NCBI GenBank assembly: GCA_027064085.1
Contig: JAMOQH010000126.1
Coordinates: forward strand, 5,040 to 69,039
Source of the DNA: a bacterium
GTDB lineage: Bacteria > UBP6 > JAFGXH01
Direction: 5' to 3'
DNA: 64,000 bases
A program made the position numbers and the translations under genes. The notes under the pieces are model-generated. The model had not been told where the DNA came from. It did not search any database and saw nothing but the letters and a program-made list of their open reading frames with translations. How positions within the stretch are numbered: position 1 is the stretch's first letter; every line of letters begins with the position of its first letter. Of this stretch, positions 19,273-54,639 are shown one piece after another.

Positions 19273-19564
19273 TTATTATTACTTTATCCTCATTACTTAT
19301 GTTCGTGAATTTTATACCCATTTGACCATTGTTTACCCATGCAATAATTCCTTCAGCATAAGCAACCTTATTATTTAGTTCCGGAAAATGTAAGTCTACA
19401 TATACTTCTGTTCCTACTTTTTCAAGTTGTGTTGCTATTATTTTAACTCCACCAACACTTACATCAATTATTTTCTGAAACATTAAAACTTCATTTCCTG
19501 TATAATCAATATATGCTTCACCGGATATTCGAACATGTTGTCTCTTTTGATTGTTTTCTGTCAT
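19235..19564 (-). CDS. PilZ-domain protein (c-di-GMP receptor-like)
   Basis: RQHVR (RxxxR) and DVSVGG (DxSxGG) PilZ signature motifs. Confidence 0.6.
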   Translation of the reverse strand: MTENNQKRQHVRISGEAYIDYTGNEVLMFQKIIDVSVGGVKIIATQLEKVGTEVYVDLHFPELNNKVAYAEGIIAWVNNGQMGIKFTNISNEDKVIINEFVKRQENNKK

Positions 19565-20488: not shown

Positions 20489-21223
20489 CTATTTTATAGA
20501 GTATAAAATAGTTTTTAGTTGCTTTTTAGGGATTCGAGAACCTAAAAAAGAAGCTGTGCCATTTTTGTTTTTCCATATAGCAACAGAAAAACCTTTTTTA
20601 TTTTGTATAAAATATGTTCTATTTTTAATTTTTAGTTTTTCAAATTTGGAAATGGAATCTAATTTATTTATATTTTTATATAATAACTTGTGACCTCTAT
20701 AGTGGTAATAAAGTAAGGGCTTTTTTTTATTAAAGGCCAAACCTAATGGGGTTATCTTTATTTTATTTTTATCAAATTGCAATAATTTAAATTTTTTATA
20801 GTTATGATACTTTATCCATTTTGATAGTTTTGTTTCATTATTTGACGCTATTTTTATGTCTTTTTTCAAATCTAATTTATAATCATTTGATAATGTAGAG
20901 TAGCCCATAGAAATTTTTGATATAAAAATAACTGATATAAATAGGGCTGCTATACTTGCCATTCCTTTTGTTGTAAAAAAATTGTAATTAATTGAAAATT
21001 GTTTTTTATTATTAAGAATTCTTTCTCTTAACTCAGAAGGTGCTTTTGGCATTGTTTTTTTTACTTCTGATTTTAAAAATTTATGAAATTCTGATTCATA
21101 ATTATATAAATTTCTACAAGTAACACAAGATTTTAGATGTTCTTCAACTTCCAAATACTCTTGTTCTGTAAGTTCATTATCTAGATAATTATATAGAAAC
21201 ATTTCAACCGTTTTACAATTCAT
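20489..21223 (-). CDS. Putative anti-sigma factor (zf-HC2-like N-terminus, single TM)
   Basis: N-terminal CxxC...H...C (HLKSCVTCRN) typical of ECF anti-sigma factors. Immediately downstream of the ECF sigma gene, with a 1-nt intergenic gap. Confidence 0.45.
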   Translation of the reverse strand: MNCKTVEMFLYNYLDNELTEQEYLEVEEHLKSCVTCRNLYNYESEFHKFLKSEVKKTMPKAPSELRERILNNKKQFSINYNFFTTKGMASIAALFISVIFISKISMGYSTLSNDYKLDLKKDIKIASNNETKLSKWIKYHNYKKFKLLQFDKNKIKITPLGLAFNKKKPLLYYHYRGHKLLYKNINKLDSISKFEKLKIKNRTYFIQNKKGFSVAIWKNKNGTASFLGSRIPKKQLKTILYSIK

Positions 21224-21224
21224 A

Positions 21225-21878
21225 TTATCCTACCAATTTTATAATTTTGTTGATATTTTTATTTGTTTTCTTATCTTCTTTTAATATACCCATTTCTTGA
21301 GCTCTTGCATATAATTTACTTTGAAGTTTTTTTCTTGCTCTAAATAATTGACTCATTACTGTTCCCATTGGAGCATCTATTATTTCTGAGATTTCTTTAT
21401 AGGAAAACTCATATACATCTGCATATAAAATCATCATTTTAAAGTTATCGGGAAGAGAGTCTAGTTCCTTATAAATATCTTCACCTAATTTTTTGAAAAA
21501 ATATTTATTTTCAGGAGAGCGATTTTCCTTTTTTACGCTATCTTCAAGCCAATTATAGTAAACACTTTCATTGTCGTTAAAATCCATAATTAAATTTTCT
21601 CTTCGTTTTTTTCTGTAATCATTTATAAATGTATTTGTTAGGATTCTAAACAACCATGCTTTTAGGTTTGTATCTTCTTTAAATTTTTTATAGTAGCGAA
21701 ATGCTTTTAGATATGTCTCTTGGACCAAATCAGAGGCTTTTGATTCATCTCTTGTAAATTTAAGAGCCAAGTAATATAAATTGTCCATATATCTTATCGC
21801 TTCTGTTTCAAACTTCTTTCTTTTATTATTAAACAAAATAATACCTCCTTCTATAATCAATATAAAATCAATTATCAT
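21225..21878 (-). CDS. ECF-family RNA polymerase sigma factor (sigma-70 region 2/4)
   Basis: LVQETYLKAFRYYKKF...LKAWLFRILTNTFINDYRK region-2 motif and a C-terminal region 4. The true start is probably internal (MDNLYY...). Confidence 0.7.
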   Translation of the reverse strand: MIIDFILIIEGGIILFNNKRKKFETEAIRYMDNLYYLALKFTRDESKASDLVQETYLKAFRYYKKFKEDTNLKAWLFRILTNTFINDYRKKRRENLIMDFNDNESVYYNWLEDSVKKENRSPENKYFFKKLGEDIYKELDSLPDNFKMMILYADVYEFSYKEISEIIDAPMGTVMSQLFRARKKLQSKLYARAQEMGILKEDKKTNKNINKIIKLVG

Positions 21879-25320: not shown

Positions 25321-25518
25321 AAATATCTCTCAAAATAAATAAACAATACCATTAAAATTATATTAATACTATTTAACAATATGTCAATAAAAAAGATTGA
25401 TTTATTCAATAAAACTTCCCTAAAACTCAGGATTTATACTTTTCTTATAGATTATTGTAAAAAAAGATTGATTTATTATATAAAATTTTATATAATAACG
25501 AGTTTTAATGGAGGGATA

Positions 25519-25806
25519 ATGGCAAGAGTAACTGTAGAAGACTGCCTAGTGAAAATACCAAATAGATTTGCATTAGTAATTCTTGCAACACAAAGAACAA
25601 GAATGTTGCTTAGAGGAGCTGATCCAAAAATTGAAAGTGATAATAAATTTCCTGTTATTGCTCTTAGAGAAATCGCAGCAGGTTATGTAAGATTTACAAG
25701 AGATGTAGAAGAAGAATTAAAAGAAACATTTGATGAATTTAAAATCTCTTATTACTACCCAAAAGAAAAGAATACCGATGAAGTTTCAGGATTAACTCTT
25801 ATTTAG
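25519..25806 (+). CDS. rpoZ: DNA-directed RNA polymerase omega subunit
   Basis: [30 protein letters not shown]. Preceded by a GGAGGG Shine-Dalgarno. The track ORF start at 25381 adds 46 low-complexity residues and is probably not the real start. Confidence 0.75.
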
Positions 25807-26758
25807 TATTTTCTATTTTTATTTTTAAATAATTTGCAATTTCAGTATTATTTTCGTCTATAGCAATTTCAAAACTATTTTTTCCATTATTATTTTCTTG
25901 TGTAATATCAGCACCAGATTCAACAAGTACTTTTACTATTTCAAGGTTTTTGCTCATTACTGCACTCATTAAAGCGGTCCAGTTGAAGTTCGTTTTAGTG
26001 TTTACATTTGCTCCATAACCTAGAATAAGCATTACTGCATCGAGTTTTCCTGATTTAGCAGCACTCATTAATGTAGTCCAACCATCTCTATTTTGGGAGT
26101 TCATTTTTATACCTATAGAGTCTAAAAATGTCATCATTTCAATATTTCCTTTTTCTGAAGCAATTATCATTAAATTTGATTTGTTTTTATTTTTTCTCCA
26201 AAATTTAGGCATTTTAGTTTTAATATATTTAAGTATCTCTAAATTACCTCCTAACACAGCAAATTGAATTATTGTATAACCTTCATATAATCCTTCTTCT
26301 ATTTTAAATTTGATATGAACTTTATAGGTTTCTATTAATTTTTTGAAATTTTTATAATCCCCATTTTCTGTAACTATTGAAATTAAATTTCTACCATTAA
26401 AGTTAAATTTATTAAGTTTTGCTTTATTTTTTAATAATTCATTAAAAACTTTATATCTTTTATTTAAATAAGCAATTATTATTGGTGTATTATCTAAAGA
26501 ATCAGGTTCATTAATATCATTTATTTTATTTTTTATTAACCATATAGAAATATCATCGTAACCTTTTCTTATGGAATATATTAAAAAACTATCTGTTTTA
26601 TTTATTTTTTTATTTAACTTATAACCTTTTTGGTGAAATTCTTTTAAATCTTGTAAACGCCCTCTTTCTATTGCTTCAAGAGGTGTTTTAGCTTTACAAG
26701 ATGATAATATAATTAATAATATTATTAAAAATATATATAAGATTCTTTTAATTTTCAT
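25799..26758 (-). CDS. Ankyrin-repeat lipoprotein (319 aa)
   Basis: Lipobox ILSSCKA followed by 6-7 ANK repeats. Confidence 0.75.
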
Positions 26759-26765
26759 AACAACC

Positions 26766-27308
26766 TTAAAAATAAGTTCCTATACCTATATAATAATTAA
26801 GGTACAAACTAGTTGTATTTTTACCATTTATTAAGAAACTAGTAAAGTTATTATATGTATAAAGCCTTAATAAATTAAATAAAGAGAATTCTATACCTAT
26901 AGAGATAGATATTCCTAAGTCAAAATATGGATAAAGAGCTGTTTTTAACTCTAGCTTTGTATATAAAATTTCATATAATCTAAGCTTGTATCCCATTTCT
27001 ATTGTTGTTAAGGAGTTTATAATGTTATAGTTTACTTGCCCCGTTAATCCATTATAAAATAAGAAGTATTTATCAATTCCTATAGAAATTTTATCTACAT
27101 TAAATGAGAATTTACTATTATTTAAGTTGTTCCAAACCCAAATGCTTCCTCCTAGAGATGTATTTATTTGAATTCTATTTGTTAAGTCACTGATTTTAAG
27201 TGTGTTAAATTTTCTTATTTCTGGTTTAGGTATTTTATTTTCAGTGTATTTAGATAATAAGGGAGAGGAAAATATAAGAAATATAAAAAATATAAAAAAT
27301 TTATTCAT
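26766..27308 (-). CDS. Small outer-membrane-like beta-barrel protein (hypothetical), first of a tandem pair
   Basis: Signal peptide. Tyr/Asn/Gly-rich amphipathic strands. C-terminal aromatic residue. Confidence 0.35.
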   Translation of the reverse strand: MNKFFIFFIFLIFSSPLLSKYTENKIPKPEIRKFNTLKISDLTNRIQINTSLGGSIWVWNNLNNSKFSFNVDKISIGIDKYFLFYNGLTGQVNYNIINSLTTIEMGYKLRLYEILYTKLELKTALYPYFDLGISISIGIEFSLFNLLRLYTYNNFTSFLINGKNTTSLYLNYYIGIGTYF

Positions 27309-27796
27309 TAAAATTCTATCCTTATAAAAAAAACTCCACTTATTGACACTGCAATATATTTATTGGTTCCAATAAATGTATAAACAGAAGCTTCAGTACC
27401 AATTTTTAGTCTTTTCCATATATTGTAGGCATGAAATAGTGCTCCTCCATAAGCTCTAAAATAAATCAAATGATTTAAATTGTTATCATTTAGCATATAA
27501 TAACCTCCTCCATAACCAATAAAAGGATGAATATCAAAAAAATAAAATTCATACATCCAAGATAGTTCTAGTTGTATCTTTGATAATTTATTAAATTCAA
27601 AATTAGTAGAAATATTACTCTTAATATATAAGTTTTTACCTATATCAAAATTAAAAATTAATCCATTATGTATATTTTTGTAATCTTCAGTTTTTAGAGT
27701 CCTTATGTATGTCATTTCTGAATCAAAAGAAACCCAGTTTTTTGAAAAGATATTTATTGTAGCTGTAAATATAATTAAATATATAAATATTTTCAT
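27308..27796 (-). CDS. Small outer-membrane-like beta-barrel protein (hypothetical), second of a tandem pair
   Basis: Signal peptide. Tyr/Gly-rich, ends in F. Confidence 0.35.
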   Translation of the reverse strand: MKIFIYLIIFTATINIFSKNWVSFDSEMTYIRTLKTEDYKNIHNGLIFNFDIGKNLYIKSNISTNFEFNKLSKIQLELSWMYEFYFFDIHPFIGYGGGYYMLNDNNLNHLIYFRAYGGALFHAYNIWKRLKIGTEASVYTFIGTNKYIAVSISGVFFIRIEF

Positions 27797-28878
27797 TTAT
27801 CTATGTATTCTAGAACTTTTTTTAAAATTATTTCTTCTGTTTTTTGTTTAGGTAGTAAATCAAAGCTAGATTTCATTTCAGAATATTTTTCAGGAGAATT
27901 TTTTAATTCCATGATTTTACTGATTAGAATATCAGGAGTTAAATCTTTTTCTTCTATCATAATAGCTGAATTACTATCCACTAATTCTCGTGCATTTAAA
28001 ACTTGATGATTATCCGTAGCTTGTGGAAACGGTATTAAAATAGATGGTTTTTTAACTAGTTTTAATTCAGAAAGAGTAGTCGCTCCAGCTCTGCATATAA
28101 TTAAGTCTGCATTATTATAAGCAGTTGACATATCCTCTATAAATGTTGTTAATTCGATGTTTTCGGCTTTAGGATTAAATTTAGAGTATAATTCTCTAGT
28201 TTTGTCATAGGTGTATTTACCTGTTTGGTGAATGATATTAAAATCTTTTAAGTTAGGAGATGCTTCTGCAATAATTTCATTTATTTTTCTAGCTCCTTGA
28301 CTTCCACCAAATATTAAAATATTTTTGATTTCACTGTTACTTTTTTTTATTTCTATTTCTCTGATTGCTTTTCTTACTGGATTTCCACTAAATACAATTT
28401 TTTCTTTTTTAAAAAATTTATGTGAATATTCAAATGTTGTAAAAATATTATTTACAAACTTACTTAATATTTTGTTGGTAATACCTGGAACGGAGTTTTG
28501 TTCAAAGATAAATGTAGGATATTTCTCCATCCATGCAGATATTAATGCTGGCCCCGATGCATAACCTCCTAAACCAATAACAGCATCAGGAACAAAATTA
28601 TTTATTATTTCTTTGGATTTAAATATAGAACTTGGGATTTTAAATAAATTTTTTATAGTATTTTTTTTACTTGTACCTTTTATTCCGCCAATATCAATTA
28701 ACTCTAATTTAAAATTTGTTGCAGGAACTTTTTCCACTTCAATACCTTTTTTAGTTCCTATGAATAAAATATCTACATTTGTTAGGTTTTCTTTGAGATA
28801 GTTGGCAAATGCCAAGCCTGGAAATAGGTGGCCACCTGTTCCTCCTCCTGCAAAAATGAATCTATAATTTTTTTTCAT
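27793..28878 (-). CDS. murG: UDP-N-acetylglucosamine--N-acetylmuramyl-(pentapeptide) pyrophosphoryl-undecaprenol N-acetylglucosamine transferase
   Basis: FAGGGTGGHLFPGLAFANYL N-terminal G-loop plus a GT28 C-terminal domain. Confidence 0.85.
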   Translation of the reverse strand: MKKNYRFIFAGGGTGGHLFPGLAFANYLKENLTNVDILFIGTKKGIEVEKVPATNFKLELIDIGGIKGTSKKNTIKNLFKIPSSIFKSKEIINNFVPDAVIGLGGYASGPALISAWMEKYPTFIFEQNSVPGITNKILSKFVNNIFTTFEYSHKFFKKEKIVFSGNPVRKAIREIEIKKSNSEIKNILIFGGSQGARKINEIIAEASPNLKDFNIIHQTGKYTYDKTRELYSKFNPKAENIELTTFIEDMSTAYNNADLIICRAGATTLSELKLVKKPSILIPFPQATDNHQVLNARELVDSNSAIMIEEKDLTPDILISKIMELKNSPEKYSEMKSSFDLLPKQKTEEIILKKVLEYIDK

Positions 28879-29636
28879 ATCTCTATTGTTTCTCCCATTT
28901 TAGCAAATCTAATTCTATGATCTTTTATCTGTTTTACTTCCTCTATAACGGTATTCGTTACAGAAGGCTTAATATGGTATAAGTAGATAGGAACATCTTT
29001 TTTAATCTTTTTTAAATCTATAGCAAGTGTTGCAGGAGAATAATGTTTTGATGCATCTGCAACATCTTGAAGAGCATTAGAAAATGAAATTTCCATAAAA
29101 ATAGCCTTTAGGTTTTTCTTTCTATTTGCTGTTTTCCAAATTTGATCAGTATTGCTTGTATCTGATGAATAAATAAAACTTGATTTACCATCATCAATAA
29201 CAAATGCAGTTGATAAAACAGTGTGATTAACTTCAACAGAAGTTATTTTATATCCACCCATAGAAAACTTACTGTTAGGTTCGGTTCCTTTAAATTTAAA
29301 TACTGGATTTTCCTTTGTTGGAATAGATGTAAAATCTGGCCAAATTAACCAATTGAATATATTGTTTTTAACTACTTCTAAAGTTTTATGTGCTCCTCTA
29401 ACATTAATTGGAGGTCTTTGTCCAAAAATTAAATCACCCCATAAAGGCAGATCTTTTATGTGATCCATATGTGAATGGCTTAATAATAAGTTGTCAATTT
29501 TAAGCAATGATTCCATATCCATTGAATGCAATAAACCACCTGCATCAATTAATAATTTATCATCAATTAAATAACTTATGCTATGATTTTCAACTCCTAG
29601 TTCTCCACCACTTACGCCTAGCATTGATATTTTCAT
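28875..29636 (-). CDS. MBL-fold hydrolase resembling class II 3',5'-cyclic-nucleotide phosphodiesterase
   Basis: SHSHMDHIKDL fits the HxHLDH class-II PDE / metallo-beta-lactamase motif. Overlaps murG by 4 nt. Confidence 0.45.
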   Translation of the reverse strand: MKISMLGVSGGELGVENHSISYLIDDKLLIDAGGLLHSMDMESLLKIDNLLLSHSHMDHIKDLPLWGDLIFGQRPPINVRGAHKTLEVVKNNIFNWLIWPDFTSIPTKENPVFKFKGTEPNSKFSMGGYKITSVEVNHTVLSTAFVIDDGKSSFIYSSDTSNTDQIWKTANRKKNLKAIFMEISFSNALQDVADASKHYSPATLAIDLKKIKKDVPIYLYHIKPSVTNTVIEEVKQIKDHRIRFAKMGETIEI

Positions 29637-29644
29637 ATATTCTC

Positions 29645-30301
29645 CTAATTAAACTCTTTAAATCTTTCTTTTTTAGTTAAGTAATCAAAAAATTCACTAA
29701 ATACTTTAAAGTCAGGAATTTTAAAAATTGGACCATTTATTTGAATTAATAGCTCATTTCTAACTAATTTTGCCAAAACTTTTTTTATTATAATTGAGTC
29801 TATCATAATTGAAGATGCTATATCTGAAACAATTATAGTTAACTCTACTTCATTTTCTTCTTCTTTCATCACTTCAATGCCTTTCTCTCTTAAATAGTGA
29901 ACAACTCGGCTTTCTGGTGTTCTTAGAAGTAAGTTTTCTATTTGTAAGTCTGCTTGAGCAAGCCTAGTTGCGAGTTTTTGTAGCATTTTTATTGCAATAT
30001 CAGCATTTCCTCTTATCATTGCCTCAAAAGTAGACGGATTTATTACTAATATTTTTGAATCAACAGAAACTCTTATTGTTGCAGTTCTTGGTTTTCCATT
30101 AAGTATTGCCATTTCTCCAAAGAATTCTCCTTTTTGTAATGTTGCTAGTACTTTTTCTTGGCCACCTATTTTTTTTAAAACTTCAACTTCTCCTTCTTGA
30201 ATTACAAACATCTCATTACCCTTATCGTTATCATGAAAAAGGTATTCTCCTTGTTTAAAAGACTTTCCGTATTTATTAAATAATTGTTCTTCTGCACTCA
30301 T
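29645..30301 (-). CDS. Crp/Fnr-like cyclic-nucleotide-binding protein
   Basis: GEFFGEMAILNGKPRTATIRVSVDSKILVI cNMP-binding beta-roll. C-terminal helical segment PESRVVHYL. Confidence 0.55.
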   Translation of the reverse strand: MSAEEQLFNKYGKSFKQGEYLFHDNDKGNEMFVIQEGEVEVLKKIGGQEKVLATLQKGEFFGEMAILNGKPRTATIRVSVDSKILVINPSTFEAMIRGNADIAIKMLQKLATRLAQADLQIENLLLRTPESRVVHYLREKGIEVMKEEENEVELTIIVSDIASSIMIDSIIIKKVLAKLVRNELLIQINGPIFKIPDFKVFSEFFDYLTKKERFKEFN

Positions 30302-30310
30302 CTAATCTCC

Positions 30311-33292
30311 TTATTTAGTGGTCATTTTAAAGCTACCGTCCCAATTAGCGTCAGGAGGAGTTTCTTTAAAATGATTACATCTATCTATGTATTTTTCTGA
30401 AAGATAATCATTAGGCTTTATTTCTAATATTTTATTAAAAATAGCTATTGATTTATCCCAATTTCTATCCCAATAATATTGTATTCCTTGATTTGTTAAA
30501 TCGCAAATTCTTAATAATTCTGTATTATGTTTATGTTTGGATAATAATTCATAAATGATAACAGGCTCATTTTTACCTTTAACTTTAACTGCGTCTAGTT
30601 TTCTACAGAGCAGGGAATCTTTAACTAATTCGTATGTATATTCACTTATAATAATATTAGTTTTATATTGTTTATTGATACCTTCTAAACGAGAACCTAA
30701 ATTAACATGATCTCCCATTACGGTATAATCAAATCTTTGTTTTGATCCCATGTTTCCAACAGACATGTCTCCAGAATTAACTCCTATACCTATATCAATA
30801 ATAGGTAAGTTTCTTGCTTTAAATTCTTCTCCAAGAATTTTTAGTTCTTCCATCATTTTTAATGCAGTTAAGCAAGCTCTCATTGCATGGTCATCTTGTT
30901 TAATAGGGGCTCCAAAAAATGCCATAATAGCATCGCCCATATATTTATCTAGTGTTCCTTCATAATCAAAAACACATTGAGTCATTGGAGTAAGATAATC
31001 ATTCATAACGACTGATAATTGATCAGGTGTTAATCCCTCTGAAATAGTTGTAAATCCTCTAATATCACTAAATAACACAGAAATATTTTTTTTAACTCCA
31101 CCAAGTGCTAATTTAGAAGGGTCTTTTAGTACTTCGTCAACGACAGATTGGCTTAGGTAGTATTTAAAAGTTTTCTTAACCATTTGTTTTTCTTTTTCTT
31201 CACTAAAGTATCTAAATATTGTTATTGATAAAAACATTATAGATGGAGTAAGTAGGTGTATTAAAATATAGAGTAAATAGCCTTGGCTAAAGAAAAATTT
31301 TACATCAATTAGAAAGATTATATATGTTGCAAGAATTGTTATAATAACATTTATATAAATTTTTAAATATGAAAATAAAATACCTAGAAAGATTACAATA
31401 AATACTAAAAAGATAAGCTCTAAAGGTAAAAAATAGTATGGTCTTTTAAAATAACTACCGTCTAGAATATTTTCTATAAAAGTAGCATGAACTTCAACTC
31501 CAGGGTATGCTTGTGAGGGGTTATATGGAGATGATCTTAAATCAAGAAGGCCTGTTGCTGTTGTTCCAAATAAGATTATCTTTCCATTAATATATTTTTC
31601 TATTTCTTTATGAGATAACTTATCAGTTAAGATAGTTTTCATTGAGATATATTTGAATGTTTCTCTCGGACCATAATAATTTAATACTAAATATGGAGTG
31701 TCAGATTCTAGTTTTAGTTTTTTCTTACCTGAAAAATCAAAATAATAGCCTAACTCCGGTAATCCATTTACTTCATACCTAAGTGCAAAAGTATCTTCTT
31801 TTTTATTTTTATCTTGATAAAATACTTTTAATGCAGATAATCCAAGAGAATATAAAACATGCCTTTTCTTTTGTTCATCTTCTATAGTATATGCAGGATA
31901 ATAGTTTCTTGCAATTCCATCAACATCAGCAATTAGGTTAAATGATCCAAAGTTGTCAGTAGCAAGAACTCCCTCTGCTCTATCTAGCATATCCATTAAT
32001 TCTTCAGGGATTTCATCTTCAGCATTATCTATTTTTTTATTGATTTCATCTACTAGTTTTTTGGGAAGTGGTTTTTCTGCCCAAACGATATCTTTATATG
32101 GAGAATTTAATGCTTCAAACTCTGCAAAAGAAACATTTTTGTTCAAATTTCCTTCGATAAGCTTTACTTCTGCCCTTGATATTATGGAATTAAAGTTTTC
32201 TCTTTTTCTTTTTTCTGAAATATTAGCATCTTGAGAACCAAAAGAGTAACCTACATAACCTAGTATAACATTTCCTGCTTTTTTTATTGCTTTTGCAAAA
32301 ATTTTATCTGGTGATATTTCATTTGATTTTTTATTTAGAAAATCAAGATATTCTTTATTTTTACTTTTCAGGTCATTAAAGCTTATTCTGTATTGTTTTA
32401 TATTTTCTTCTATCGTTGCTATTATTTTTTTAGTTTGATAAATATTATTTTTTAATTGCTTTAATAGCTTTGTTTCTTTTATTGTTTTTGTTTGTATTTT
32501 TTTAGAAAGTTTTTTTCTATTTTTTTCTATTTTTTTAAGTGTTATTTGGGATTTATATAATCTTTTCTTTATTTTTTTTAATTCTAACTCCTTTTGTTTA
32601 ATTAATTCATTTAATTTTTTTATAATTTCACCATTTGAAGTTAGAGATATCTTTTGAAATTTATTATATAATTCTTTAGATGTTTTAATTGATTCATTAT
32701 TACTTGGATCAGCAAAAACCATATCAAATGCAACTGCTTTTGCTCCCATCTTTTTTAATTTTAAAACAATATTTGAAAGTTTTCTTCTATCTATAGGCCA
32801 ACCATATTTATCTAAAGTGGCATCATCCATATCAATAATAGTAACAGAATTAGAAACTTTTTTGATTCCTCTTGTGTTATATTTAAATTTTTCAATAGAG
32901 CGTTCTAAATAACCAAATACTCCAGAGTAAACATTATTATTAACCGTAAAATAATCTAATGTTACAACTAGTATAACTAAATACATTACAACAGCAAATG
33001 CTGATTTTGATGGATTTATCCTTGTTCTAGCTTTTTTATCAGTAGCTAACAAGGGAATTATTGGAGTCAGAATAAAAGATGATAAAAATAATAATATTAT
33101 TTTCTTTTTACTGTATTTTTGCTTTATAAGATAATAAAGCCAATATAAGAATATCGATGATACTCCAACAGCTATAGAAATATCTGTTCTTAATATTGAA
33201 AATAATGATAATAAAAATAGTACAAAGTTAATATATAACAATAGCACTAAGGGGTTTGTTTTGGGATTAATTATATTTATTAAAGCTTTCAT
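30311..33292 (-). CDS. CHASE2-sensor membrane adenylate/guanylate cyclase (class III) with a Lys-rich coiled-coil insertion
   Basis: N-terminal TM + CHASE2 (IIDMDDATLDKYGWPIDRR...AVAFDMVFADPS), a TM bundle, then a cyclase domain (VLFSDIRGFTTISE...YMGDAIMAFFGAP). Residues ~215-330 are KK/EL-rich heptad-like repeats. Confidence 0.75.
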   Translation of the reverse strand: MKALINIINPKTNPLVLLLYINFVLFLLSLFSILRTDISIAVGVSSIFLYWLYYLIKQKYSKKKIILLFLSSFILTPIIPLLATDKKARTRINPSKSAFAVVMYLVILVVTLDYFTVNNNVYSGVFGYLERSIEKFKYNTRGIKKVSNSVTIIDMDDATLDKYGWPIDRRKLSNIVLKLKKMGAKAVAFDMVFADPSNNESIKTSKELYNKFQKISLTSNGEIIKKLNELIKQKELELKKIKKRLYKSQITLKKIEKNRKKLSKKIQTKTIKETKLLKQLKNNIYQTKKIIATIEENIKQYRISFNDLKSKNKEYLDFLNKKSNEISPDKIFAKAIKKAGNVILGYVGYSFGSQDANISEKRKRENFNSIISRAEVKLIEGNLNKNVSFAEFEALNSPYKDIVWAEKPLPKKLVDEINKKIDNAEDEIPEELMDMLDRAEGVLATDNFGSFNLIADVDGIARNYYPAYTIEDEQKKRHVLYSLGLSALKVFYQDKNKKEDTFALRYEVNGLPELGYYFDFSGKKKLKLESDTPYLVLNYYGPRETFKYISMKTILTDKLSHKEIEKYINGKIILFGTTATGLLDLRSSPYNPSQAYPGVEVHATFIENILDGSYFKRPYYFLPLELIFLVFIVIFLGILFSYLKIYINVIITILATYIIFLIDVKFFFSQGYLLYILIHLLTPSIMFLSITIFRYFSEEKEKQMVKKTFKYYLSQSVVDEVLKDPSKLALGGVKKNISVLFSDIRGFTTISEGLTPDQLSVVMNDYLTPMTQCVFDYEGTLDKYMGDAIMAFFGAPIKQDDHAMRACLTALKMMEELKILGEEFKARNLPIIDIGIGVNSGDMSVGNMGSKQRFDYTVMGDHVNLGSRLEGINKQYKTNIIISEYTYELVKDSLLCRKLDAVKVKGKNEPVIIYELLSKHKHNTELLRICDLTNQGIQYYWDRNWDKSIAIFNKILEIKPNDYLSEKYIDRCNHFKETPPDANWDGSFKMTTK

Positions 33293-33419
33293 AAACCTAC
33301 ATTTAAAACTTAGTTAGACATTTTAAGATTAATATATTGAAATGTCAATTTTTTTTTATTATTTATCTATTGAAAGGGGGAGGCCCCTAAAAAAGTAAAC
33401 TCTTCTAGGGGATTTTTTA

Positions 33420-36410
33420 TTATCTTAATAAGCTCATTAAACCTTGAGCTTGCTGATTTGCTTGAGCCAGCATCGCTGTTGATGTTTGAGAAAGAATTTG
33501 TGATTTTGATAATTGAGTTGTTTCTCTTGCAACATCTAAATCTCTAATTGCTGATTCTGCGGCCGTAGTATTTTCTCTTTGGGCAGCTAAATTAGCCATA
33601 GTATATTCTAATCTATTTGCATAAGCTCCAATTCTTGCTCTTTCTGATGAAACCATATCAATAGCTTCATCAAGAGTTCTTATGGATTCTTGAGCTGGTT
33701 CAGGATCTGTTAATAACACCCTTGTTATTCCTAATGCTTGTGCATCCATTTGAGAAATAAATGCATTCATCATTTGCCCTTCGTTTGCTCCAATTTGAAA
33801 ATCCATAGAGTTATCTACTATGTTAATTGTTTCAGTTGATGTTTCATCTGTTGAAGTAAAATCAAAAGCTCTAGTTGCAGTATTCCAATTAACATTTAAG
33901 TTATAATTTGCATCAAATTCTATATCAATTCCATCTATAACACCTTGAAGCCTATTGTCACTAACGGTATCTTGCCCTACAAATTCGCCTGTAATTGCAT
34001 CTCTAACTGTAATGTCCATTTCATTGTTTTTTGCCTCTTGAATAGTAGAAACTCCTAGTGCATTTAATAAGTCTTCATTTGCTGCTAAATATAATCTACC
34101 ATCTTTATCTGTTTTAGGAGATCTAATAACAATAGAGCCTTGCTGATTTTCAAAAGTACCACTTGTTGGAGTATCTATATAATCGGCAACATGCTTATCT
34201 ACAACTACATCACCTGAAGACATTCCCAATCCTCCATCACTTTTATCACCAATTATCGCATTCTCTATTTTCTCAGATAAAACATCTAGTGTGTCTAAAC
34301 CATCGATTAGCACTGTTGAGCTATCTCCAACTCCATTATATACTGTAAGATATTGACCATGATCTCCAAGTATAAAATTTCCATCTGGGTCATAAAATCT
34401 ATCTAAATCAATTAATCTACTATGGCCACTACTATCACCACCGCCATTCATTACATTAAATGTTACTATACCATCACTTACAGGAACACCGGTAACAGAT
34501 TCATTAAAGCTTGTTGCCATAGTTCCAAATTCTATATGTCCTGTTTCTGTATTAATCCAACCTGCTTGTAATTCTGTTGATGCATTGTCTAAGGTGTTAT
34601 CAATATGACTAAATACTGCACCTTGCTGAGGTAAATTATTTGAAGGGTCAAATGCATCTACTCTTGTTAAATCCCTATTGGGAGTATTGTCATTATCATT
34701 AAGGGCAATCAGCATTCTATCTCCAATTTGATAGTTAGCTCCATTACCATTATTTGTAAAAGCTCTATTAAACTCTAATGTCTGTATTCCATCAGTTACA
34801 AGAGTATCAGTTGCTCCATTCCAAATATCATCAGCACTGTACCATGTATCTCCCTGATTAAATGACACTCTTGCATCTAGGCCAGCTGCCCCTAAGCTTC
34901 CATCTGATGTAAATTCAATAATCGCATAACCACCAGTTGCAGAATTACTATTAGTTGTGAATGCATCTGCTGCAGTAGTACCTAAATTACCTAAATTATT
35001 CGTAAATGCATGAAGTCCCTGATCTGCTACTTCAACTGTTGGATCCGCTCCTACAGTTAATGAATAATTGTTGCTTTGACTTGGGTCATCAACAGTAATT
35101 GTTACATTACCCGCACCATCATCATGGGCAGTAATATATTGATTTAAGTCTGTATTTGCATTAATTGCGTCTGCAATTTCAGTTCCATTACCTGCAACTG
35201 TACCTGTTGTTGTGTTTATTACAACAGGAATATCATCTCCACCTAAATTAAATGTTAAATTTACAGCTCCATTAACTGCTGTTGCTGTAATGTCTCCAGA
35301 CATTTGTGAGCTATTTAAACCATTTGAACCATCTTGTAAATATTGTCCAACCATTCCATATATATCATTGGCACCAACTTGTAAGTTTCCATCTGCTCCT
35401 TCGTCAATATTTATTTTATAGTTTGTTGTAGTTGATGGAATTAAACCAACAGTGTTTGAAACACCTGAGATACCCGCTTGAGATTCATTACCTCCTGAGA
35501 AAATATGTATTCCTTGGTCTAATGGGTCAACTCCAGAGCCACTAATCGTAGCTTGAAATCCATTGCCGGCAACACCAGTTTCTCTTGATGTGATTAAAAC
35601 ATCTCCTGTTGGAGTATAATTCGCAATAATACTATCATTTAATCTAGTATCATTATTTATTTGATCAACAATTTCTTGTGCATTATCTAAAATGGTTGCA
35701 CCAGTTGTTGTATAGTTAAAATCTATATCACCATTTCCAAAGTTAAAAATAACATCTACATTTCCTGCAATTGCTGTTGGAGTAATATTTCCTTGCATTG
35801 CTGCTTGTTGTCCAAATAGTGTTATGTCTCTAACGCCTTTGACACCATCTTTAATTCTAAAAACAGATGTTTGTAATACTTGAGGAACGCCTGGGTCTGC
35901 ATGTATTTCTAAGCTATAGGAACCGTCATCAACTTGACCTCTTACAAAAGCATTGATATCTCCTGTTGAAGCAGACCATAATGCACTTGATTCACCAGTT
36001 AAAAGTCTTTTTGTATTAAATTCAGTTCTTTTTGCTGTAGCATCGATTTCTTTAATAAGGGATTCAACTTCATGTTGAACTTCAAGTCTATCATCTGAAG
36101 TTAATGTACCATTAGATGCTTGAATTGCTAATTCTCTCATTCTATGTAGCATTCCATGAACTTCATTTAGAGCTCCTTCTGCTGTTTGAATAAGTGAAGT
36201 TGCTGATTGAGCGTTTTCTTCAGCTCTTGATAAACCTCTTATTTGTGTTCTCATTCTTTCAGATATTGATAAGCCTGATGGATCATCTGCTGCCGAGTTA
36301 ATTCTTAGACCACTTGAAAGTCTTGAGATGGACTTTGTAACCATACTGTTTGCAGTATTTAAGTCATTTTGAGCTGATAAAGCAGCTAAGTTATTATTAA
36401 TTGATAACAT
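33420..36410 (-). CDS. Giant flagellin paralogue 3 (996 aa)
   Basis: N-terminus has LSSGLRINSAADDPSGLSISERMRTQIRGL...TEFNTKRLLTG. C-terminus has RIGAYANRLEYTMANL...LSKSQILSQTSTAMLAQANQQAQGLMSLLR. The central region shares blocks with paralogues 1 and 2. Confidence 0.85.
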   Translation of the reverse strand: MLSINNNLAALSAQNDLNTANSMVTKSISRLSSGLRINSAADDPSGLSISERMRTQIRGLSRAEENAQSATSLIQTAEGALNEVHGMLHRMRELAIQASNGTLTSDDRLEVQHEVESLIKEIDATAKRTEFNTKRLLTGESSALWSASTGDINAFVRGQVDDGSYSLEIHADPGVPQVLQTSVFRIKDGVKGVRDITLFGQQAAMQGNITPTAIAGNVDVIFNFGNGDIDFNYTTTGATILDNAQEIVDQINNDTRLNDSIIANYTPTGDVLITSRETGVAGNGFQATISGSGVDPLDQGIHIFSGGNESQAGISGVSNTVGLIPSTTTNYKINIDEGADGNLQVGANDIYGMVGQYLQDGSNGLNSSQMSGDITATAVNGAVNLTFNLGGDDIPVVINTTTGTVAGNGTEIADAINANTDLNQYITAHDDGAGNVTITVDDPSQSNNYSLTVGADPTVEVADQGLHAFTNNLGNLGTTAADAFTTNSNSATGGYAIIEFTSDGSLGAAGLDARVSFNQGDTWYSADDIWNGATDTLVTDGIQTLEFNRAFTNNGNGANYQIGDRMLIALNDNDNTPNRDLTRVDAFDPSNNLPQQGAVFSHIDNTLDNASTELQAGWINTETGHIEFGTMATSFNESVTGVPVSDGIVTFNVMNGGGDSSGHSRLIDLDRFYDPDGNFILGDHGQYLTVYNGVGDSSTVLIDGLDTLDVLSEKIENAIIGDKSDGGLGMSSGDVVVDKHVADYIDTPTSGTFENQQGSIVIRSPKTDKDGRLYLAANEDLLNALGVSTIQEAKNNEMDITVRDAITGEFVGQDTVSDNRLQGVIDGIDIEFDANYNLNVNWNTATRAFDFTSTDETSTETINIVDNSMDFQIGANEGQMMNAFISQMDAQALGITRVLLTDPEPAQESIRTLDEAIDMVSSERARIGAYANRLEYTMANLAAQRENTTAAESAIRDLDVARETTQLSKSQILSQTSTAMLAQANQQAQGLMSLLR

Positions 36411-36680
36411 GGTAACCTCCCTGTACTAGCTTAATATTGAACCCTCTAAGCTAAAAAAATTATTGCTTTTAGTGGTCTTTCATTCGCTGACAATTTAAAC
36501 ATCGTCAACAAGGTGAAATACTAAAATTTTTTATCCTCTTTTCCTAAAGCAATGAACTTTCCTAAAATATTATTAATTTTAAAATTTAGTAAATACAGTA
36601 GGTTAGCTTTTGTTATTTAAGGTGAATTAAAATTTAATAGTTGTCAATATATTGTCATTATTTTGTAAGTGGCAAGTTTT

Positions 36681-37286
36681 TTATATAAAGTTTATGATTT
36701 TTTTAAGGTTATAGTTTAATTTAATTATTTCTTCAAAAAAAATCAAATCATTTTTATTTAAATAACAAATTGCTTCAATATAGCTTGATAGAAGAAGTTC
36801 TTTTCCTTTGCTATTTCCTGTTTCAAGATATGAGTGTGCCAAGTATAGTTTAATAAATATACTATTTTTTATGTTCTTTTCCTTTTTATAATTTTTTAAC
36901 AAATATGGGATGGCTCTATTGTAATTTTTTGAGATATAAAAAGATAACATTTTATTGATTTCTCTGTTTGGATTTTCATATATAATTAATTTATCAAAAA
37001 CTTTATATATTTTTGACTTTTTAATTTCATCTGATTTTATAAATCTGTATGAGGCTTCTTTGTATAGTCCATTTTTATAATAATAATTTGCTAGAACTTC
37101 ATAGTAAGTTAAATAAACTCCAGTTGCTAGTACTAAAAAATAAAAAATTGCCATTAGAATACTTATAATTGAACGAAATTTTATTCCATGATATCGTCTG
37201 TATATAATAACTCCAATAAAAAATATTGTTGAGCTTAAGATAAATAATAATACAGAATCATTTTTAAAATAATTAAAATCAAACAT
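36681..37286 (-). CDS. Hypothetical membrane protein
   Basis: Two predicted N-terminal TM helices, then a Tyr/Lys-rich helical region. Confidence 0.3.
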   Translation of the reverse strand: MFDFNYFKNDSVLLFILSSTIFFIGVIIYRRYHGIKFRSIISILMAIFYFLVLATGVYLTYYEVLANYYYKNGLYKEASYRFIKSDEIKKSKIYKVFDKLIIYENPNREINKMLSFYISKNYNRAIPYLLKNYKKEKNIKNSIFIKLYLAHSYLETGNSKGKELLLSSYIEAICYLNKNDLIFFEEIIKLNYNLKKIINFI

Positions 37287-37288
37287 TT

Positions 37289-38650
37289 TTATATGTTATT
37301 CCTTAAAGAATAAAGTACCTCATTCAAATTTCCCGCACCAACAGAAAATATAGTATAATTATCTTTAAATATAGATGTTACAAGGTTTCTAGCTTCAGTA
37401 TGGTTGTTAGCAAATTTTAAAAAATTATAGTCATTTTTATTTAACTTCTCAAATAAGTCACTTGCACTTGCTCCTTTAATTATTTCTTCACTTGCGGCAT
37501 ATTCTTTTAAGAGGACCAGGTTTTTAGGCATTTTTAATACTCTTACTATTTCATCAAAACTATCTCGTGTACGAGTATAACGATGTGGTTGATATAAAAT
37601 TATAATATTTTCTTTTCTTAAAATATTTTTAAATAATGCTTCCATTTCAATGGGATGATGAGCGTAATCATCGAATAGGGATATATTTTTTTCTTTATTT
37701 TTGTATATTAATTCACTGCGTCTTTTTACCCCTTTAAAATCAGAAAAGTCTAAATCTAATATATTAATATCGTCAAGCTGGTCAATGGAAGCAATAGCTG
37801 CAACGGTATTTAAAACATTGTATTTGCCGGTTAAAGGTAATTCATATTTTTTTATCTTTTTATTGTTTTTATATAAATCAAAATATGTGGTAAATCCTTT
37901 TTCTTCTATGTTTTTTGGGGTATAAACAGCATTGTCAGAAAATCCAAATGTTATTCCTACTGAAAATATTGATTTTAAATTTTTATCATCAGTGTTCCAA
38001 ATAGTAATTTTACTTTGTTTTGAAAAATTTAAAAAAGCTTTTTTTAGATTTTCAAAATTTCCATAATGGTCTAGATGTTCTGGATCTAAATTATTTAATA
38101 GGGTAATATTAGGAAGTAAATTTAAAAAAGAACCATCACTTTCATCTGCTTCTGTAACAAAAATACCCTTTTCTTTTATTTCTGAATTAGTGTTAAAGTT
38201 AGATAGTATTCCCCCAACATTGAATGAGATATCATTTCTTAAATTTTTTAAGGCATAAGTTATTAAAGCACTAGTTGTAGTCTTTCCATGACTTCCCGCT
38301 ACAGCAATAAGATTATATTCATTTGAAATTAAAGATAGAAATTCACCTCTAATTAAAATAGGGATATTTAATTTTTTTGCTTTAATCGTTTCTTCATTTT
38401 CTTTTACTGCAGATGTTTTTACTATTAATTCTACATTAGGGGTAATATTTGAGGCGACTTGAGAATAAAACACTTTAATTCCTTCATTTTCGAGGTTTTT
38501 AGTTAACTCTGAAGATTTTAAATCAGAACCAGTTACAGTATAATTTTTGGCTTTCATAATTCGAGCTAAAGCACTTACTCCAATTCCACCAATTCCAATA
38601 AAGTGAATCGTTTTTATATTCTTTAAGTTATCAATAGTAAAATTAATCAT
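37289..38650 (-). CDS. murC: UDP-N-acetylmuramate--L-alanine ligase
   Basis: GIGGIGVSALARIM...GSDL N-terminal motif. Mur-ligase central motif AVAGSHGKTTT. Confidence 0.85.
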   Translation of the reverse strand: MINFTIDNLKNIKTIHFIGIGGIGVSALARIMKAKNYTVTGSDLKSSELTKNLENEGIKVFYSQVASNITPNVELIVKTSAVKENEETIKAKKLNIPILIRGEFLSLISNEYNLIAVAGSHGKTTTSALITYALKNLRNDISFNVGGILSNFNTNSEIKEKGIFVTEADESDGSFLNLLPNITLLNNLDPEHLDHYGNFENLKKAFLNFSKQSKITIWNTDDKNLKSIFSVGITFGFSDNAVYTPKNIEEKGFTTYFDLYKNNKKIKKYELPLTGKYNVLNTVAAIASIDQLDDINILDLDFSDFKGVKRRSELIYKNKEKNISLFDDYAHHPIEMEALFKNILRKENIIILYQPHRYTRTRDSFDEIVRVLKMPKNLVLLKEYAASEEIIKGASASDLFEKLNKNDYNFLKFANNHTEARNLVTSIFKDNYTIFSVGAGNLNEVLYSLRNNI

Positions 38651-38715
38651 AATTACCTCAAAAAAGCAAGATACTATAGCATAATTTTAAAAAAAAATCT
38701 TGTAGAAATTGAACT

Positions 38716-40107
38716 TTAAATTATGATTTCTTCTAAGAATAGTAGGGGCTTTGTGTAAATTGTCTGCCCGAATTTTTTATTTGTTGTTGAATATGTTAAA
38801 AATAAATTTTCTTTTGCTCTTGTAATTCCAACATAAAAAAGCCTTCTTTCTTCTTCAATATTAGTATCTTTTCTTAAAAATATTTCTTCTCCCAAATAAG
38901 GAAGAAAAACAGTATTAAATTCTAGTCCTTTTGCACTATGATATGTAATAACTCTAATTCCATTTCCTCTATTATCAAGCTCTAGTTCTATTTTTTCCTC
39001 ATCGCTTAAAGATGTGGTAAACTCTATGTTATTATTTTGTAAGTATGGTATTAATTTTTTAATTTGCGAGTTATATCTCAATAAAATGGCGATAGAGTTG
39101 GAGTTTTTACCCATATTTATAAAAGATTTTAATTTTTCTATAATAAAATAATTTTCTTGATCTTGCTCTAAAAATACTTTTTTCTCTATTATCCCTATAT
39201 CTAAATTTGTATTATCAAGTGTTTTTTTATATCTAAATTTATTGTTTTTTATTAAAGAATTAGCTATTTTTACGATTTTTTTACTTGAACGATAGTTTAT
39301 TAATAATTTTGTTACTTTTGTGCCTTTAAACTGTTCCTCAAAGCGTAATATATTTTCAATTTTAGCATCTCTAAAACCATATATAGATTGGTCATCATCG
39401 CCAACGGCAAAAAGGTTTATTTTATTGTTTAATTTTATAATTTCTTGTATTAAGTTTAGCTGTAGAAGTGATGTATCTTGGTATTCGTCTATTAATATAT
39501 GGGAAAATTTATTTTTAAAAACTTCTCTGAATTTTTTATTGTTTTTTATGTTTTTTATTAAAACTAAGAGCATATTTTCATAATCAATCCTTTTTTGCTT
39601 AATTAATGCTGCTTCATATAATTCATAAGCTTTTTTTAAGAAAACTTCCATAGTATTATTTTTATTGACAACGAGTTCAGTATAAAATAAGCCATTTCTT
39701 TTTAGCTTTTCAATTTGAGCCATAAATGGGTCAATATAAGAACTTTTCAATTGTAATCTCTTAATACTCTCTTCAAAAAACTCTCTTTTTTCTTCTCCTT
39801 GTAAAATTATTGGAGAATAATTAAGCAAATTATATTCATTTATTAGTTTTAATGAAAAAGAGTGAAATGTACCAATATATTTTAAATAAACTCCTATCTT
39901 TTCTATTCTTTCTTCCATTTCAAGTGCTGCTTTATTTGAAAATGTTAATAATGCAATTTTTTTAGGCTCAATTGAGTTTTCTATTGTTAATTTCAATATT
40001 CTATTAATAATAACAGTGGTTTTTCCTGTACCTGCTCCTGCAATTACTAAATTAAATTGACTTTTTGAATTAACTGCTTTTTCTTGTTTTTTATTTAAGT
40101 TTATCAT
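38716..40107 (-). CDS. Short (463 aa) UvrD/PcrA-like superfamily-1 helicase
   Basis: Walker A is AGAGTGKTTVIINRIL. DExx region is ILIDEYQDT. C-terminal motif VGITRAKENLFL. Much shorter than canonical UvrD. Confidence 0.55.
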   Translation of the reverse strand: MINLNKKQEKAVNSKSQFNLVIAGAGTGKTTVIINRILKLTIENSIEPKKIALLTFSNKAALEMEERIEKIGVYLKYIGTFHSFSLKLINEYNLLNYSPIILQGEEKREFFEESIKRLQLKSSYIDPFMAQIEKLKRNGLFYTELVVNKNNTMEVFLKKAYELYEAALIKQKRIDYENMLLVLIKNIKNNKKFREVFKNKFSHILIDEYQDTSLLQLNLIQEIIKLNNKINLFAVGDDDQSIYGFRDAKIENILRFEEQFKGTKVTKLLINYRSSKKIVKIANSLIKNNKFRYKKTLDNTNLDIGIIEKKVFLEQDQENYFIIEKLKSFINMGKNSNSIAILLRYNSQIKKLIPYLQNNNIEFTTSLSDEEKIELELDNRGNGIRVITYHSAKGLEFNTVFLPYLGEEIFLRKDTNIEEERRLFYVGITRAKENLFLTYSTTNKKFGQTIYTKPLLFLEEIII

Positions 40108-54615: not shown

Positions 54616-54639
54616 TTTATTATCTTTTTAGGTGTTGTT

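Follow-up and report, generated by a model that had tools for sequence, protein, structure and literature searches.

A predicted cAMP signaling operon of a CHASE2 cyclase, a CRP-like receptor and a class-II-type phosphodiesterase upstream of murG

What is the role of three genes that appear to make, bind and degrade one cyclic nucleotide and that stand side by side between a flagellin gene and the cell-wall gene murG? The question is raised by a window of 64,000 nt, i.e., the whole stretch of DNA analyzed here (GenBank assembly GCA_027064085.1, contig JAMOQH010000126.1, positions 5,040 to 69,039 of the forward strand), which stems from an uncultured, deep-branching and poorly sampled bacterial lineage (GTDB UBP6; JAFGXH01). 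An earlier note on this DNA had read three consecutive minus-strand genes as a CHASE2 cyclase, a Crp-like binder of cyclic nucleoside monophosphates (cNMPs) and a hydrolase of the metallo-beta-lactamase (MBL) fold, i.e., as synthesizer, receptor and likely degrader of cAMP/cGMP, and had suggested that they tune motility or filament composition. We find that domain, fold and motif evidence bears out the predicted division of labor among the three proteins. It is likely that they form a self-contained signaling operon for cyclic AMP (cAMP), i.e., a closed loop of cyclase, receptor and phosphodiesterase (PDE). For the link to motility, on the other hand, no support beyond gene adjacency was found.

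The features of the locus are collected in Table 1. The three genes are located exactly where the earlier note had placed them, between murG and a flagellin gene that is the third of the window. Cyclase and binder genes are separated by the 9 nt already noted (TAA-GGAGA-TTAG-ATG) and binder and MBL genes by 8 nt (TAGGAGA-ATAT-ATG), i.e., each internal spacer is little more than a Shine-Dalgarno sequence with a GGAGA ribosome-binding site. The overlap of 4 nt between the MBL gene and murG was likewise recovered, with stop and start sharing ATGA. Beyond murG, the genes for the 162-aa and 180-aa proteins and the ankyrin lipoprotein follow with overlaps or gaps of at most 7 nt. Given that the packing continues past murG, the likely unit comprises seven genes, the first three of which are the cyclic-nucleotide trio. 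That is, murG is probably co-transcribed with the PDE gene, and the three small genes are a probable distal part of the same operon.

Table 1. Features of the cyclic-nucleotide locus and its direct neighbors (positions within the window)
Feature	Position	Strand	Evidence
Gene of CHASE2 receptor adenylyl cyclase (predicted)	30311..33292	-	open reading frame (ORF) of 993 aa; Pfam CHASE2 and Guanylate_cyc; match to CyaB 3r5g
Four N-terminal hydrophobic segments (aa ~12-119)	32936..33259	-	Kyte-Doolittle scan
CHASE2 sensor domain (aa 131-636), ~2x profile length	31385..32902	-	Pfam
Lys-rich (25% K) coiled-coil-like insertion in CHASE2 (aa ~205-330)	32303..32680	-	composition; weak SMC coiled-coil match at aa 205-327
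Three transmembrane segments between CHASE2 and catalytic domain (aa ~617-694)	31211..31444	-	hydropathy scan
Class III catalytic domain (aa 735-910)	30563..31090	-	D743, D787 metal; K783, T857 substrate; N864, R868 transition state
Conserved C-terminal extension (aa 915-993, ~80 residues), ending PPxxxWDG...TK	30314..30550	-	cyclase alignment
Gene of CRP-like cyclic-nucleotide receptor	29645..30301	-	ORF of 218 aa; PF00027; AlphaFold model; Foldseek
cNMP-binding beta-roll (aa 13-97), phosphate-binding cassette FGEMAILNGKPRTAT	30011..30265	-	Pfam; alignment
Predicted winged helix-turn-helix (aa 129-197)	29711..29917	-	DSSP of AlphaFold model
Extra C-terminal helix (aa 198-215), tail (L)xEFLEFLEMKEKFG	29657..29710	-	model; L208, F214 invariant
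Gene of class-II-type MBL-fold cyclic-nucleotide PDE (predicted)	28875..29636	-	ORF of 253 aa; PF02112; model
Metal-binding signature H54-S-H56-M-D58-H59 within SHSHMDH	29460..29477	-	alignment
murG	27793..28878	-	TIGR01133, 324 bits (cutoff 250)
Three packed genes: 162-aa and 180-aa signal-peptide proteins, 319-aa ankyrin lipoprotein	25799..27796	-	ORF coordinates; Ank domains
Giant flagellin of 996 aa, upstream neighbor	33420..36410	-	Flagellin_N and Flagellin_C
Candidate promoter, sigma70-like, TTGACA-17-TAAAAT	33320..33348	-	11/12 consensus match; ends ~28 nt 5' of cyclase ATG
Hairpin just 3' of flagellin stop, CCCCTAGAAGAGT/ACTTTTTTAGGGG	33384..33411	-	13 bp; compensatory change in L001

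For the head gene, Pfam finds both domains that had been proposed, i.e., CHASE2 (PF05226, E 2.2e-43, 149 bits, profile positions 31-255 of 257) and Guanylate_cyc (PF00211, E 1e-22, 81 bits compared to a gathering score of 21.9). Among solved structures, the catalytic domain is best matched by the adenylyl cyclase CyaB of Pseudomonas aeruginosa (3r5g, E 4e-41), followed by Synechocystis Cya2 and Spirulina CyaC. We aligned five orthologues, namely those of the window, of the relatives' loci L001, L003 and L086, and of the betaproteobacterial locus L018 (L numbers denote stretches of relatives that carry homologs). All six class III residues are invariant in the five sequences, and D743, D787, N864 and R868 align with their counterparts in CyaB and CyaC. 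We therefore observe no loss of catalytic residues, and the cyclase is predicted to be active and ATP-specific (class IIIb, Lys/Thr type). The C-terminal extension gave no Pfam match (aa 915-993), but it is conserved down to L018, with Y940, W945, D946, R971, P979, P980, W984, D985, G986, T992 and K993 invariant.

The sensor part of the cyclase departs from the standard layout. Its CHASE2 match is stretched over ~500 residues by the Lys-rich insertion and a second, smaller one; these insertions are present in the window, L001, L003 and L086 and absent from L018. CHASE2 receptors are canonically taken to have one transmembrane helix before and three after an extracytoplasmic domain. The three segments after CHASE2 follow this pattern. 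Before the domain, four hydrophobic segments are found in the window, L001 and L086, and the canonical single one in L003 and L018. Only the last of the four, which is preceded by KKARTR, matches the canonical pre-CHASE2 helix. Sensing in the periplasm is, in our estimate, fairly likely.

The MBL protein passes the check for class II cAMP phosphodiesterases that the earlier note had called for. PDEase_II (PF02112) matches with E 5.8e-11 and 42.5 bits (gathering score 23.7), Lactamase_B_2 scores similarly, and PF02112 is precomputed for 120 of the 120 listed homologs. The family is uniform in length (~254 aa), and its members are named '3',5'-cyclic-nucleotide phosphodiesterase', 'cAMP phosphodiesterase' or 'ribonuclease BN' by their sources; the last label is wrong in our view. 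Across 39 family members, the putative metal ligands H54, H56, D58, H59, H138, D159, H198 and H221 are invariant. The textbook HxHLDH is present in 16 of these 39, and in the window its Leu is replaced by Met. Among the matches listed, the nearest relatives in named genomes belong to Bdellovibrio and Bacteriovoracaceae (at most 44% identity).

To compare with solved structures, we searched a family profile built from 16 sequences against the PDB. The best match is yeast PDE1 (4ojv, 3.6e-14), a solved class II cAMP PDE, which has the hlFNDxIWPD motif in common with the MBL family, where it is near-invariant. RNase Z comes second (1.9e-12), with an alignment in two pieces that skips residues 154-200 of the Bacillus subtilis enzyme, which we take to be its tRNA-binding flexible arm. 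The predicted model shows an MBL fold (pLDDT 95.1, pTM 0.92), for which Foldseek reports YhfI (6kns, E 5e-17, TM-score ~0.8), yeast PDE1 (TMq 0.83), RNase Z (0.75) and Apyc1 (0.72). That is, the fold alone does not discriminate, and a class II PDE is told apart by sequence motif, curated thresholds and gene context.

Class II PDEs (PF02112) include yeast PDE1, Dictyostelium PdsA and Vibrio fischeri CpdP. PdeE of Myxococcus xanthus is counted among them as well and may belong to the same subfamily as the window protein. The window protein resembles this class in its MBL fold, in HxH[L/M]DH, in the FNDxIWPD of yeast PDE1 and in its score above the Pfam threshold. It is shorter than yeast PDE1 (253 vs. 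369 aa) and without the insertions of the latter. In contrast to CpdP, it carries no signal peptide and is thus taken to be cytoplasmic. Typical class II PDEs are described by HxHLDH and PF02112, 'atypical' ones by [T/S]HxHxDH and PF12706 (PMC9293780). The atypical group, i.e., Rv1339, B. subtilis YhfI/YfhI and Corynebacterium glutamicum CpdA (PMC9293780) as well as phage Apyc1, has a similar length (~250 aa), carries [T/S]HxHxDH and is closest in overall fold. Its sequence kinship to the window protein is weak (YhfI 30-48 bits, Apyc1 31 bits, NF041851 38 bits vs. a cutoff of 400), and the PDE1-type FNxxIWPDF is an extra of the window family. The family of the window protein fits both patterns and lies between the two groups.

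For the binder, the prediction of a Crp-like cNMP receptor is supported. Its sole Pfam family is cNMP_binding (PF00027, E 7.4e-25, 87 bits), with a canonical phosphate-binding cassette (FGEMA...PRTAT). G62, E63, R72 and A74 of this cassette are the same in all 38 members of the family that were aligned; within the family, Arg72 can be followed by T, S, N or A. In the AlphaFold model (mean pLDDT 86.6; in the C-terminal half mostly 84-96), an extended C-helix (100-125) leads into helix aD, a strand, aE (158-165), aF (169-181) and a beta-hairpin wing. Using Foldseek, about 200 of its 218 residues align to cAMP-bound GlxR, Mycobacterium tuberculosis CRP, Escherichia coli CAP, Sinorhizobium meliloti Clr (7pzb) and P. 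aeruginosa Vfr (E ~1e-15). The TM-scores are modest (0.42-0.48), which we attribute to the two domains being oriented differently to each other in the modeled monomer. An effector region, whose lack had been named as a possible objection, is hence predicted to be present in form of a CRP-type winged helix. The closest relatives are found in Myxococcales (~47% identity), and many full-length homologs at 41-49% identity match HTH_Crp_2 and are named Crp/Fnr regulators by their sources. An exhaustive search with the C-terminal domain alone returned only three representatives, all of the same family, i.e., no new architecture.

Is the arrangement a matter of chance? It is not: relatives at 87%, 61% and ~50% protein identity have the genes in the same order, and parts of this order are seen across phyla. 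In L001 and L002, with MBL proteins 87% identical to that of the window, we find the same series of murC, 201-aa gene, flagellin, cyclase, binder, PDE, murG, two small genes and an Ank gene. In L003 (MBL 61%, MurG 51%), the four genes from cyclase to murG are retained, but a flagellin is missing, the distal genes are different and the upstream ORF is unrelated to the 201-aa gene of the window. In L086 (binder 49%), cyclase, binder and PDE are placed between unrelated genes, with neither murG nor flagellin nearby. Thus, murG adjacency is a lineage-level feature (L001, L002 and L003, but not L086), and flagellin adjacency is found only among close relatives.

The pair of binder and PDE reaches further than the trio. 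For distant binder homologs on long contigs, a PDEase_II gene follows 3-15 nt downstream in three of three cases, with nothing else in common. The pair is also present in L040, L059, L068 and L081, and for L059, L088 and L089 it is found in unrelated contexts; in every cassette-type locus examined, the PDE gene directly follows the binder gene. Starting from the PDE, a scan of species-representative genomes yielded at least 593 stretches that encode a member of the MBL family, of which we inspected the best 80 loci. In 36 of them (mostly Burkholderiales, Gallionellaceae and Azonexus), the gene that immediately precedes the MBL gene encodes a CHASE2 cyclase, and 25 of these 36 show a cNMP-domain gene just downstream. 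A full-length CRP-like binder directly upstream is found in 4/80 loci, and neither cyclase nor binder upstream in 27/80 (mostly Bacteriovoracia). From these counts, the core relationships are PDE-cyclase and PDE-binder, with the full trio being one recurrent combination. The synteny supports a functional unit.

The downstream cNMP-domain gene can be a different partner, as in L018, where it encodes a cNMP-rhodanese fusion. This locus is a signaling island (3471-16053 of L018) of a CHASE2-Ser/Thr kinase, a PP2C phosphatase, an FHA protein, a CHASE2 cyclase (738 aa), an MBL PDE, the cNMP+rhodanese protein (362 aa), a GAF-fused type II/IV secretion ATPase and an HD-domain protein; the domain names were read from the translations rather than from a Pfam scan.

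As for known systems, the cyaD1-clr-spdA locus of S. meliloti seems to be the closest characterized analogue, and a precedent that cuts both ways. S. meliloti employs the CHASE2 adenylyl cyclases CyaD1, CyaD2 and CyaK, the CRP-like Clr and the PDE SpdA (PMC4222275, PMC13001267). At cyaD1, a CHASE2 class III cyclase, a CRP-family receptor and a PDE gene are found together as in our trio (PMC4222275, PMC13001267). Differences are that the S. meliloti genes are separate transcription units with others in between, in contrast to a compact polycistron with spacers of 8-9 nt; that SpdA is a class III metallophosphoesterase without MBL fold and specific for 2',3'-cNMP, in contrast to the class-II-type PDE of the window; and that Clr has a defined box (TGTT-N8-AACA), whereas none was found for the window binder.

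A second comparison is the CyaB-Vfr-CpdA circuit of P. aeruginosa, which contains the best solved match of the cyclase (CyaB) and a structural match of the binder (Vfr). It follows the same logic as the window trio, with cAMP made at the membrane, sensed by a CRP-type receptor and removed by a PDE, by which the signal is reset. CyaB senses through MASE2 instead of CHASE2, the PDE CpdA belongs to class III, and the genes are dispersed.

We also investigated the 127 nt between flagellin and cyclase genes, which hold a hairpin first and then a sigma70-like site. Both hexamers of the latter as well as the sequence down to the ATG are kept in L001. The hairpin is preserved in L001, too, by a compensatory A-T to G-C change, and it is likely a terminator or a 3' stabilizer of the flagellin transcript. 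It lacks a clear T-tract and is hence not called by the terminator scan, which called no terminator-like site on the minus strand across 25500-38800. An Rfam scan found no riboswitch or RNA element near the cassette; its sole match is a tRNA at 43707-43781.

From these observations, we propose the following circuit. The inner-membrane CHASE2 receptor would make 3',5'-cAMP upon a signal that is presumed to come from the envelope or the periplasm. A dimeric protein of the CRP family would take up the cAMP in its phosphate-binding cassette and respond by a change in the DNA binding of its winged helix, in the simplest case at its own operon or at a small regulon. The cytoplasmic class-II-type MBL PDE would hydrolyze cAMP to 5'-AMP, which would reset the signal and set its amplitude and duration. 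The trio would be transcribed from its own sigma70-type promoter on a transcript that also carries murG and the three small envelope-protein genes; with all three proteins made from one mRNA, their ratios would be fixed. The most parsimonious output is local autoregulation, possibly reaching the co-transcribed murG and envelope genes.

Several observations weigh against this circuit. With regard to the PDE, the separation between class II PDEs and RNase Z-like MBLs is modest in both sequence (55.9 vs. 50.2 bits) and fold (TMq 0.83 vs. 0.75), and the PDE encoded at cyaD1-clr turned out to act specifically on 2',3'-cNMP rather than on 3',5'-cAMP (PMC4222275). For the binder, Pfam reports no helix-turn-helix (HTH) match in the window protein, where HTH_Crp_2 (PF13545) is below detection, and conservation within the family is lowest in HTH and wing (~2.1 bits column entropy, recognition helix 2.08 bits). 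Inverted repeats and shared palindromes sought upstream of cassette or binder in 10 loci revealed no common operator, and the 13-nt inverted repeat that spans the window promoter is not kept in L001. The canonical CRP box TGTGA-N6-TCACA is absent near the cassettes of the window and L001. Furthermore, promoter-like sites are no more common than in shuffles of this AT-rich region, which leaves TTGACA-17-TAAAAT a candidate promoter only. Finally, the topology of the N-terminal cyclase segments is ambiguous, with no clear answer from the positive-inside rule.

The first group of these observations relates to the question whether the MBL protein is a cAMP degrader or cuts 2',3'-cyclic nucleotides, an RNA or tRNA 3' end or some other phosphodiester instead. 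MBLs of the RNase Z, PhnP and YhfI type do score near PDE1 in sequence and fold searches, and SpdA, likewise once predicted to be a cAMP PDE, provides the precedent for a 2',3'-specific enzyme (PMC4222275). We nevertheless consider such an activity unlikely. While the protein exceeds the PDEase_II gathering score, it stays far below the cutoffs of the RNase Z equivalogs (TIGR02651 44 bits vs. 293; NF000801 34 vs. 252) and of the PhnP equivalog (34 bits vs. 272). A clustering with RNase Z, which the earlier note had named as contrary evidence, is thus not what we see, in line with the skipped residues 154-200. In addition, FNDxIWPD is common to the solved cAMP PDE, and the family is linked to adenylyl cyclase genes (36/80 loci) and to cNMP-binding genes across phyla. 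Judged by motif, thresholds and neighbors, 3',5'-cAMP is quite likely the substrate.

The second group concerns the output of the binder. Beside regulating transcription, the CRP-like protein might act by protein contacts via its C-terminal helix, e.g., by gating the adjacent PDE, without being a sequence-specific transcription factor. Conservation is distributed in a way that suits this idea: column entropy is 0.6 bits for the phosphate-binding cassette, 0.73 for the C-helix and 1.24 for the C-terminal helix with its invariant L208 and F214, compared to 2.1-2.2 bits for aE, aF and wing. The same holds for the adjacency of binder and PDE genes in every cassette-type locus, with no other neighbor in common, and for the lack of a common operator in the 10 loci. 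No recognition motif of the type R-E-x-x-x-R was found in the binder. On the other hand, the predicted fold is a complete CRP-type winged HTH, whose relatives match HTH_Crp_2. In L086, a perfect CRP-box consensus (TGTGATATTTATCACA, 4845-4860 of L086) lies ~130 nt upstream of the cyclase-binder-PDE cassette, where ~0.2 sites with at most one mismatch are expected for the locus. Moreover, regulators often adjoin their targets, and recognition helices can co-evolve with local operators. The HTH charge was dropped as an argument, given that canonical CRP is near neutral as well.

Taken together, protein contacts in place of DNA binding are rather improbable. Still less probable is the stricter version in which binder and PDE form an obligate two-gene unit, i.e., a protein-level feedback device in which the binder does not read DNA but gates the PDE or another partner by its C-terminal helix, here wired to a CHASE2 sensor and translationally coupled to murG and the envelope genes. 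An invariant pairing, a hypervariable recognition helix, a conserved tail and the missing operator keep it among the candidates, but we do not favor it over ordinary local autoregulation. DNA binding is plausible from the CRP fold only, with neither a recognition motif nor a shared palindrome nor a CRP box near the window cassette to add to it; on the strength of the model, we regard a DNA-binding output as rather probable.

What about the flagellin? A dedication of the cassette to flagellin choice or motility was suggested by the earlier note. The adjacency is found in the window as well as in L001 and L002, the window holds three flagellin genes together with flgI and flgJ, and cAMP-CRP controls flagellar genes in other bacteria. 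Nevertheless, the hairpin with its compensatory change and the conserved promoter part the flagellin from the cassette. There is no flagellin beside the cassette in L003 and L086, nor beside the binder-PDE pair elsewhere, and the tight coupling of the cassette is on its opposite side, to murG. Given hairpin and candidate promoter together with the synteny, we treat the flagellin gene as a separate unit, which is probably transcribed on its own and not part of the cassette. A role dedicated to motility is thus hardly probable.

The flagellins themselves are unusual in size. All three are encoded on the minus strand (1329-4814, 1161 aa; 4998-8474, 1158 aa; 33420-36410, 996 aa) and show normal Flagellin_N and Flagellin_C ends around a variable middle of 800-900 aa, with flgI and a FlgJ-like gene in between. 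The FlgJ-like protein (9818-10552, plus strand) combines a Rod-binding domain with Peptidase_M23 rather than a glucosaminidase.

With regard to the messenger, the note had left cAMP and cGMP side by side. The synthesis of a cyclic nucleotide stands, but the specificity residues that it had proposed to check indicate cAMP instead of cGMP. The substrate residues K783 (in LDKYMGD) and T857 (in DYTVMGD) are matched by CyaB (IDKFVGD, DYTIIG), and CyaC has the same Lys and Thr, whereas the guanylyl cyclase Cya2 shows Glu and Gly at these sites (IDEFMGD, KYGVVG). With this pair and all six residues invariant, cAMP is the likely product. The Lys/Thr type defines class IIIb, a subset of which responds to bicarbonate/CO2. 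A signal by cGMP or another cNMP could be read from the best sequence matches of the binder, which are apicomplexan cGMP-dependent kinases (PKG), and from its cassette R-T-A as in PKG; also, the Myxococcus enzyme PdeE hydrolyzes both cAMP and cGMP. Since the residue after Arg72 varies within the family, the structural neighbors of the binder are cAMP-CRP proteins and the cyclase residues are of the CyaB/CyaC type, we consider this very unlikely. Conversely, these residues suggest that the messenger is very probably cAMP.

An anti-phage system of the Pycsar type with an Apyc1-like nuclease was rejected as extremely improbable: although PADLOC models of PycC match the cyclase domain (98 bits), Pycsar TIR-effector models match the binder and Anti-Pycsar_Apyc1 is listed on the MBL family by precomputed Pfam, these are domain-level matches that cover only the cNMP part of the effector models and give none for the MBL protein in PADLOC, there is no TIR, transmembrane or other killing domain, the C-terminus of the binder is a CRP-type winged HTH, the cyclase, with its adenylyl-type residues, belongs to the CHASE2 membrane receptors, and the locus is stably chromosomal beside murG in diverged genomes.

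Beside the cassette, the window (GC content ~27%) shows further features. The genes murG (27793-28878) and murC (37289-38650) are ~8.4 kb apart, with murC upstream and the 201-aa gene, the flagellin and the cAMP trio in between; no other genes of a cell-division or cell-wall cluster are nearby. MurC identity is 46-54% in metagenome-assembled genomes and falls to 34-38% in Myxococcota and Thermodesulfobacteriota. The 162- and 180-aa ORFs that follow murG (26766-27796, minus strand) have signal-peptide-like N-termini and aromatic C-terminal ends (...IRIEF and ...IGTYF). A Pfam scan of both gave no match; judging by these ends, both may be small beta-barrel proteins of the outer membrane whose genes share a transcript with murG.

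Eukaryote-like repeats are found in a 1032-aa ankyrin protein (14337-17435), the 319-aa ankyrin lipoprotein (25799-26758) and a 784-aa RCC1-repeat protein (46126-48480), which hint at a host-associated or predatory lifestyle. A stand-alone PilZ protein of 109 aa (19235-19564) lies next to a pair of extracytoplasmic function (ECF) sigma factor and zf-HC2 anti-sigma factor (20489-21878); given the PilZ protein, components of c-di-GMP signaling are present in the neighborhood as well. Finally, the region 54577-63999 looks poor in ORFs because its open frame (plus strand, at least 3141 aa) runs off the window end. It encodes 11 DUF11 repeats, DUF7619, DUF7507 and SdrD_B, and its product looks like a giant surface or adhesin-like protein.

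What does the locus mean beyond this window? In the usual description of bacterial cAMP circuits, the genes are dispersed and the PDEs belong to class III; class II enzymes are held to be rare in bacteria (PMC13087886). The trio is real, recurs across bacterial phyla and is made of known parts; no concept is changed by it. What it adds are leads: a class-II-type PDE family that is paired tightly with an atypical CRP-like protein, a modified CHASE2 sensor, and the coupling to murG. The compact family of ~254 aa is found in at least ~590 species representatives, and in several phyla its genes are linked to those of CHASE2 adenylyl cyclases and cNMP-binding proteins. Three proteins are thereby at hand to investigate which signals CHASE2 domains perceive. 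The translational coupling to murG echoes the link between cAMP and peptidoglycan that was reported for Rv1339 (PMC9293780), and it offers a testable hypothesis that would join envelope sensing to cell-wall synthesis.

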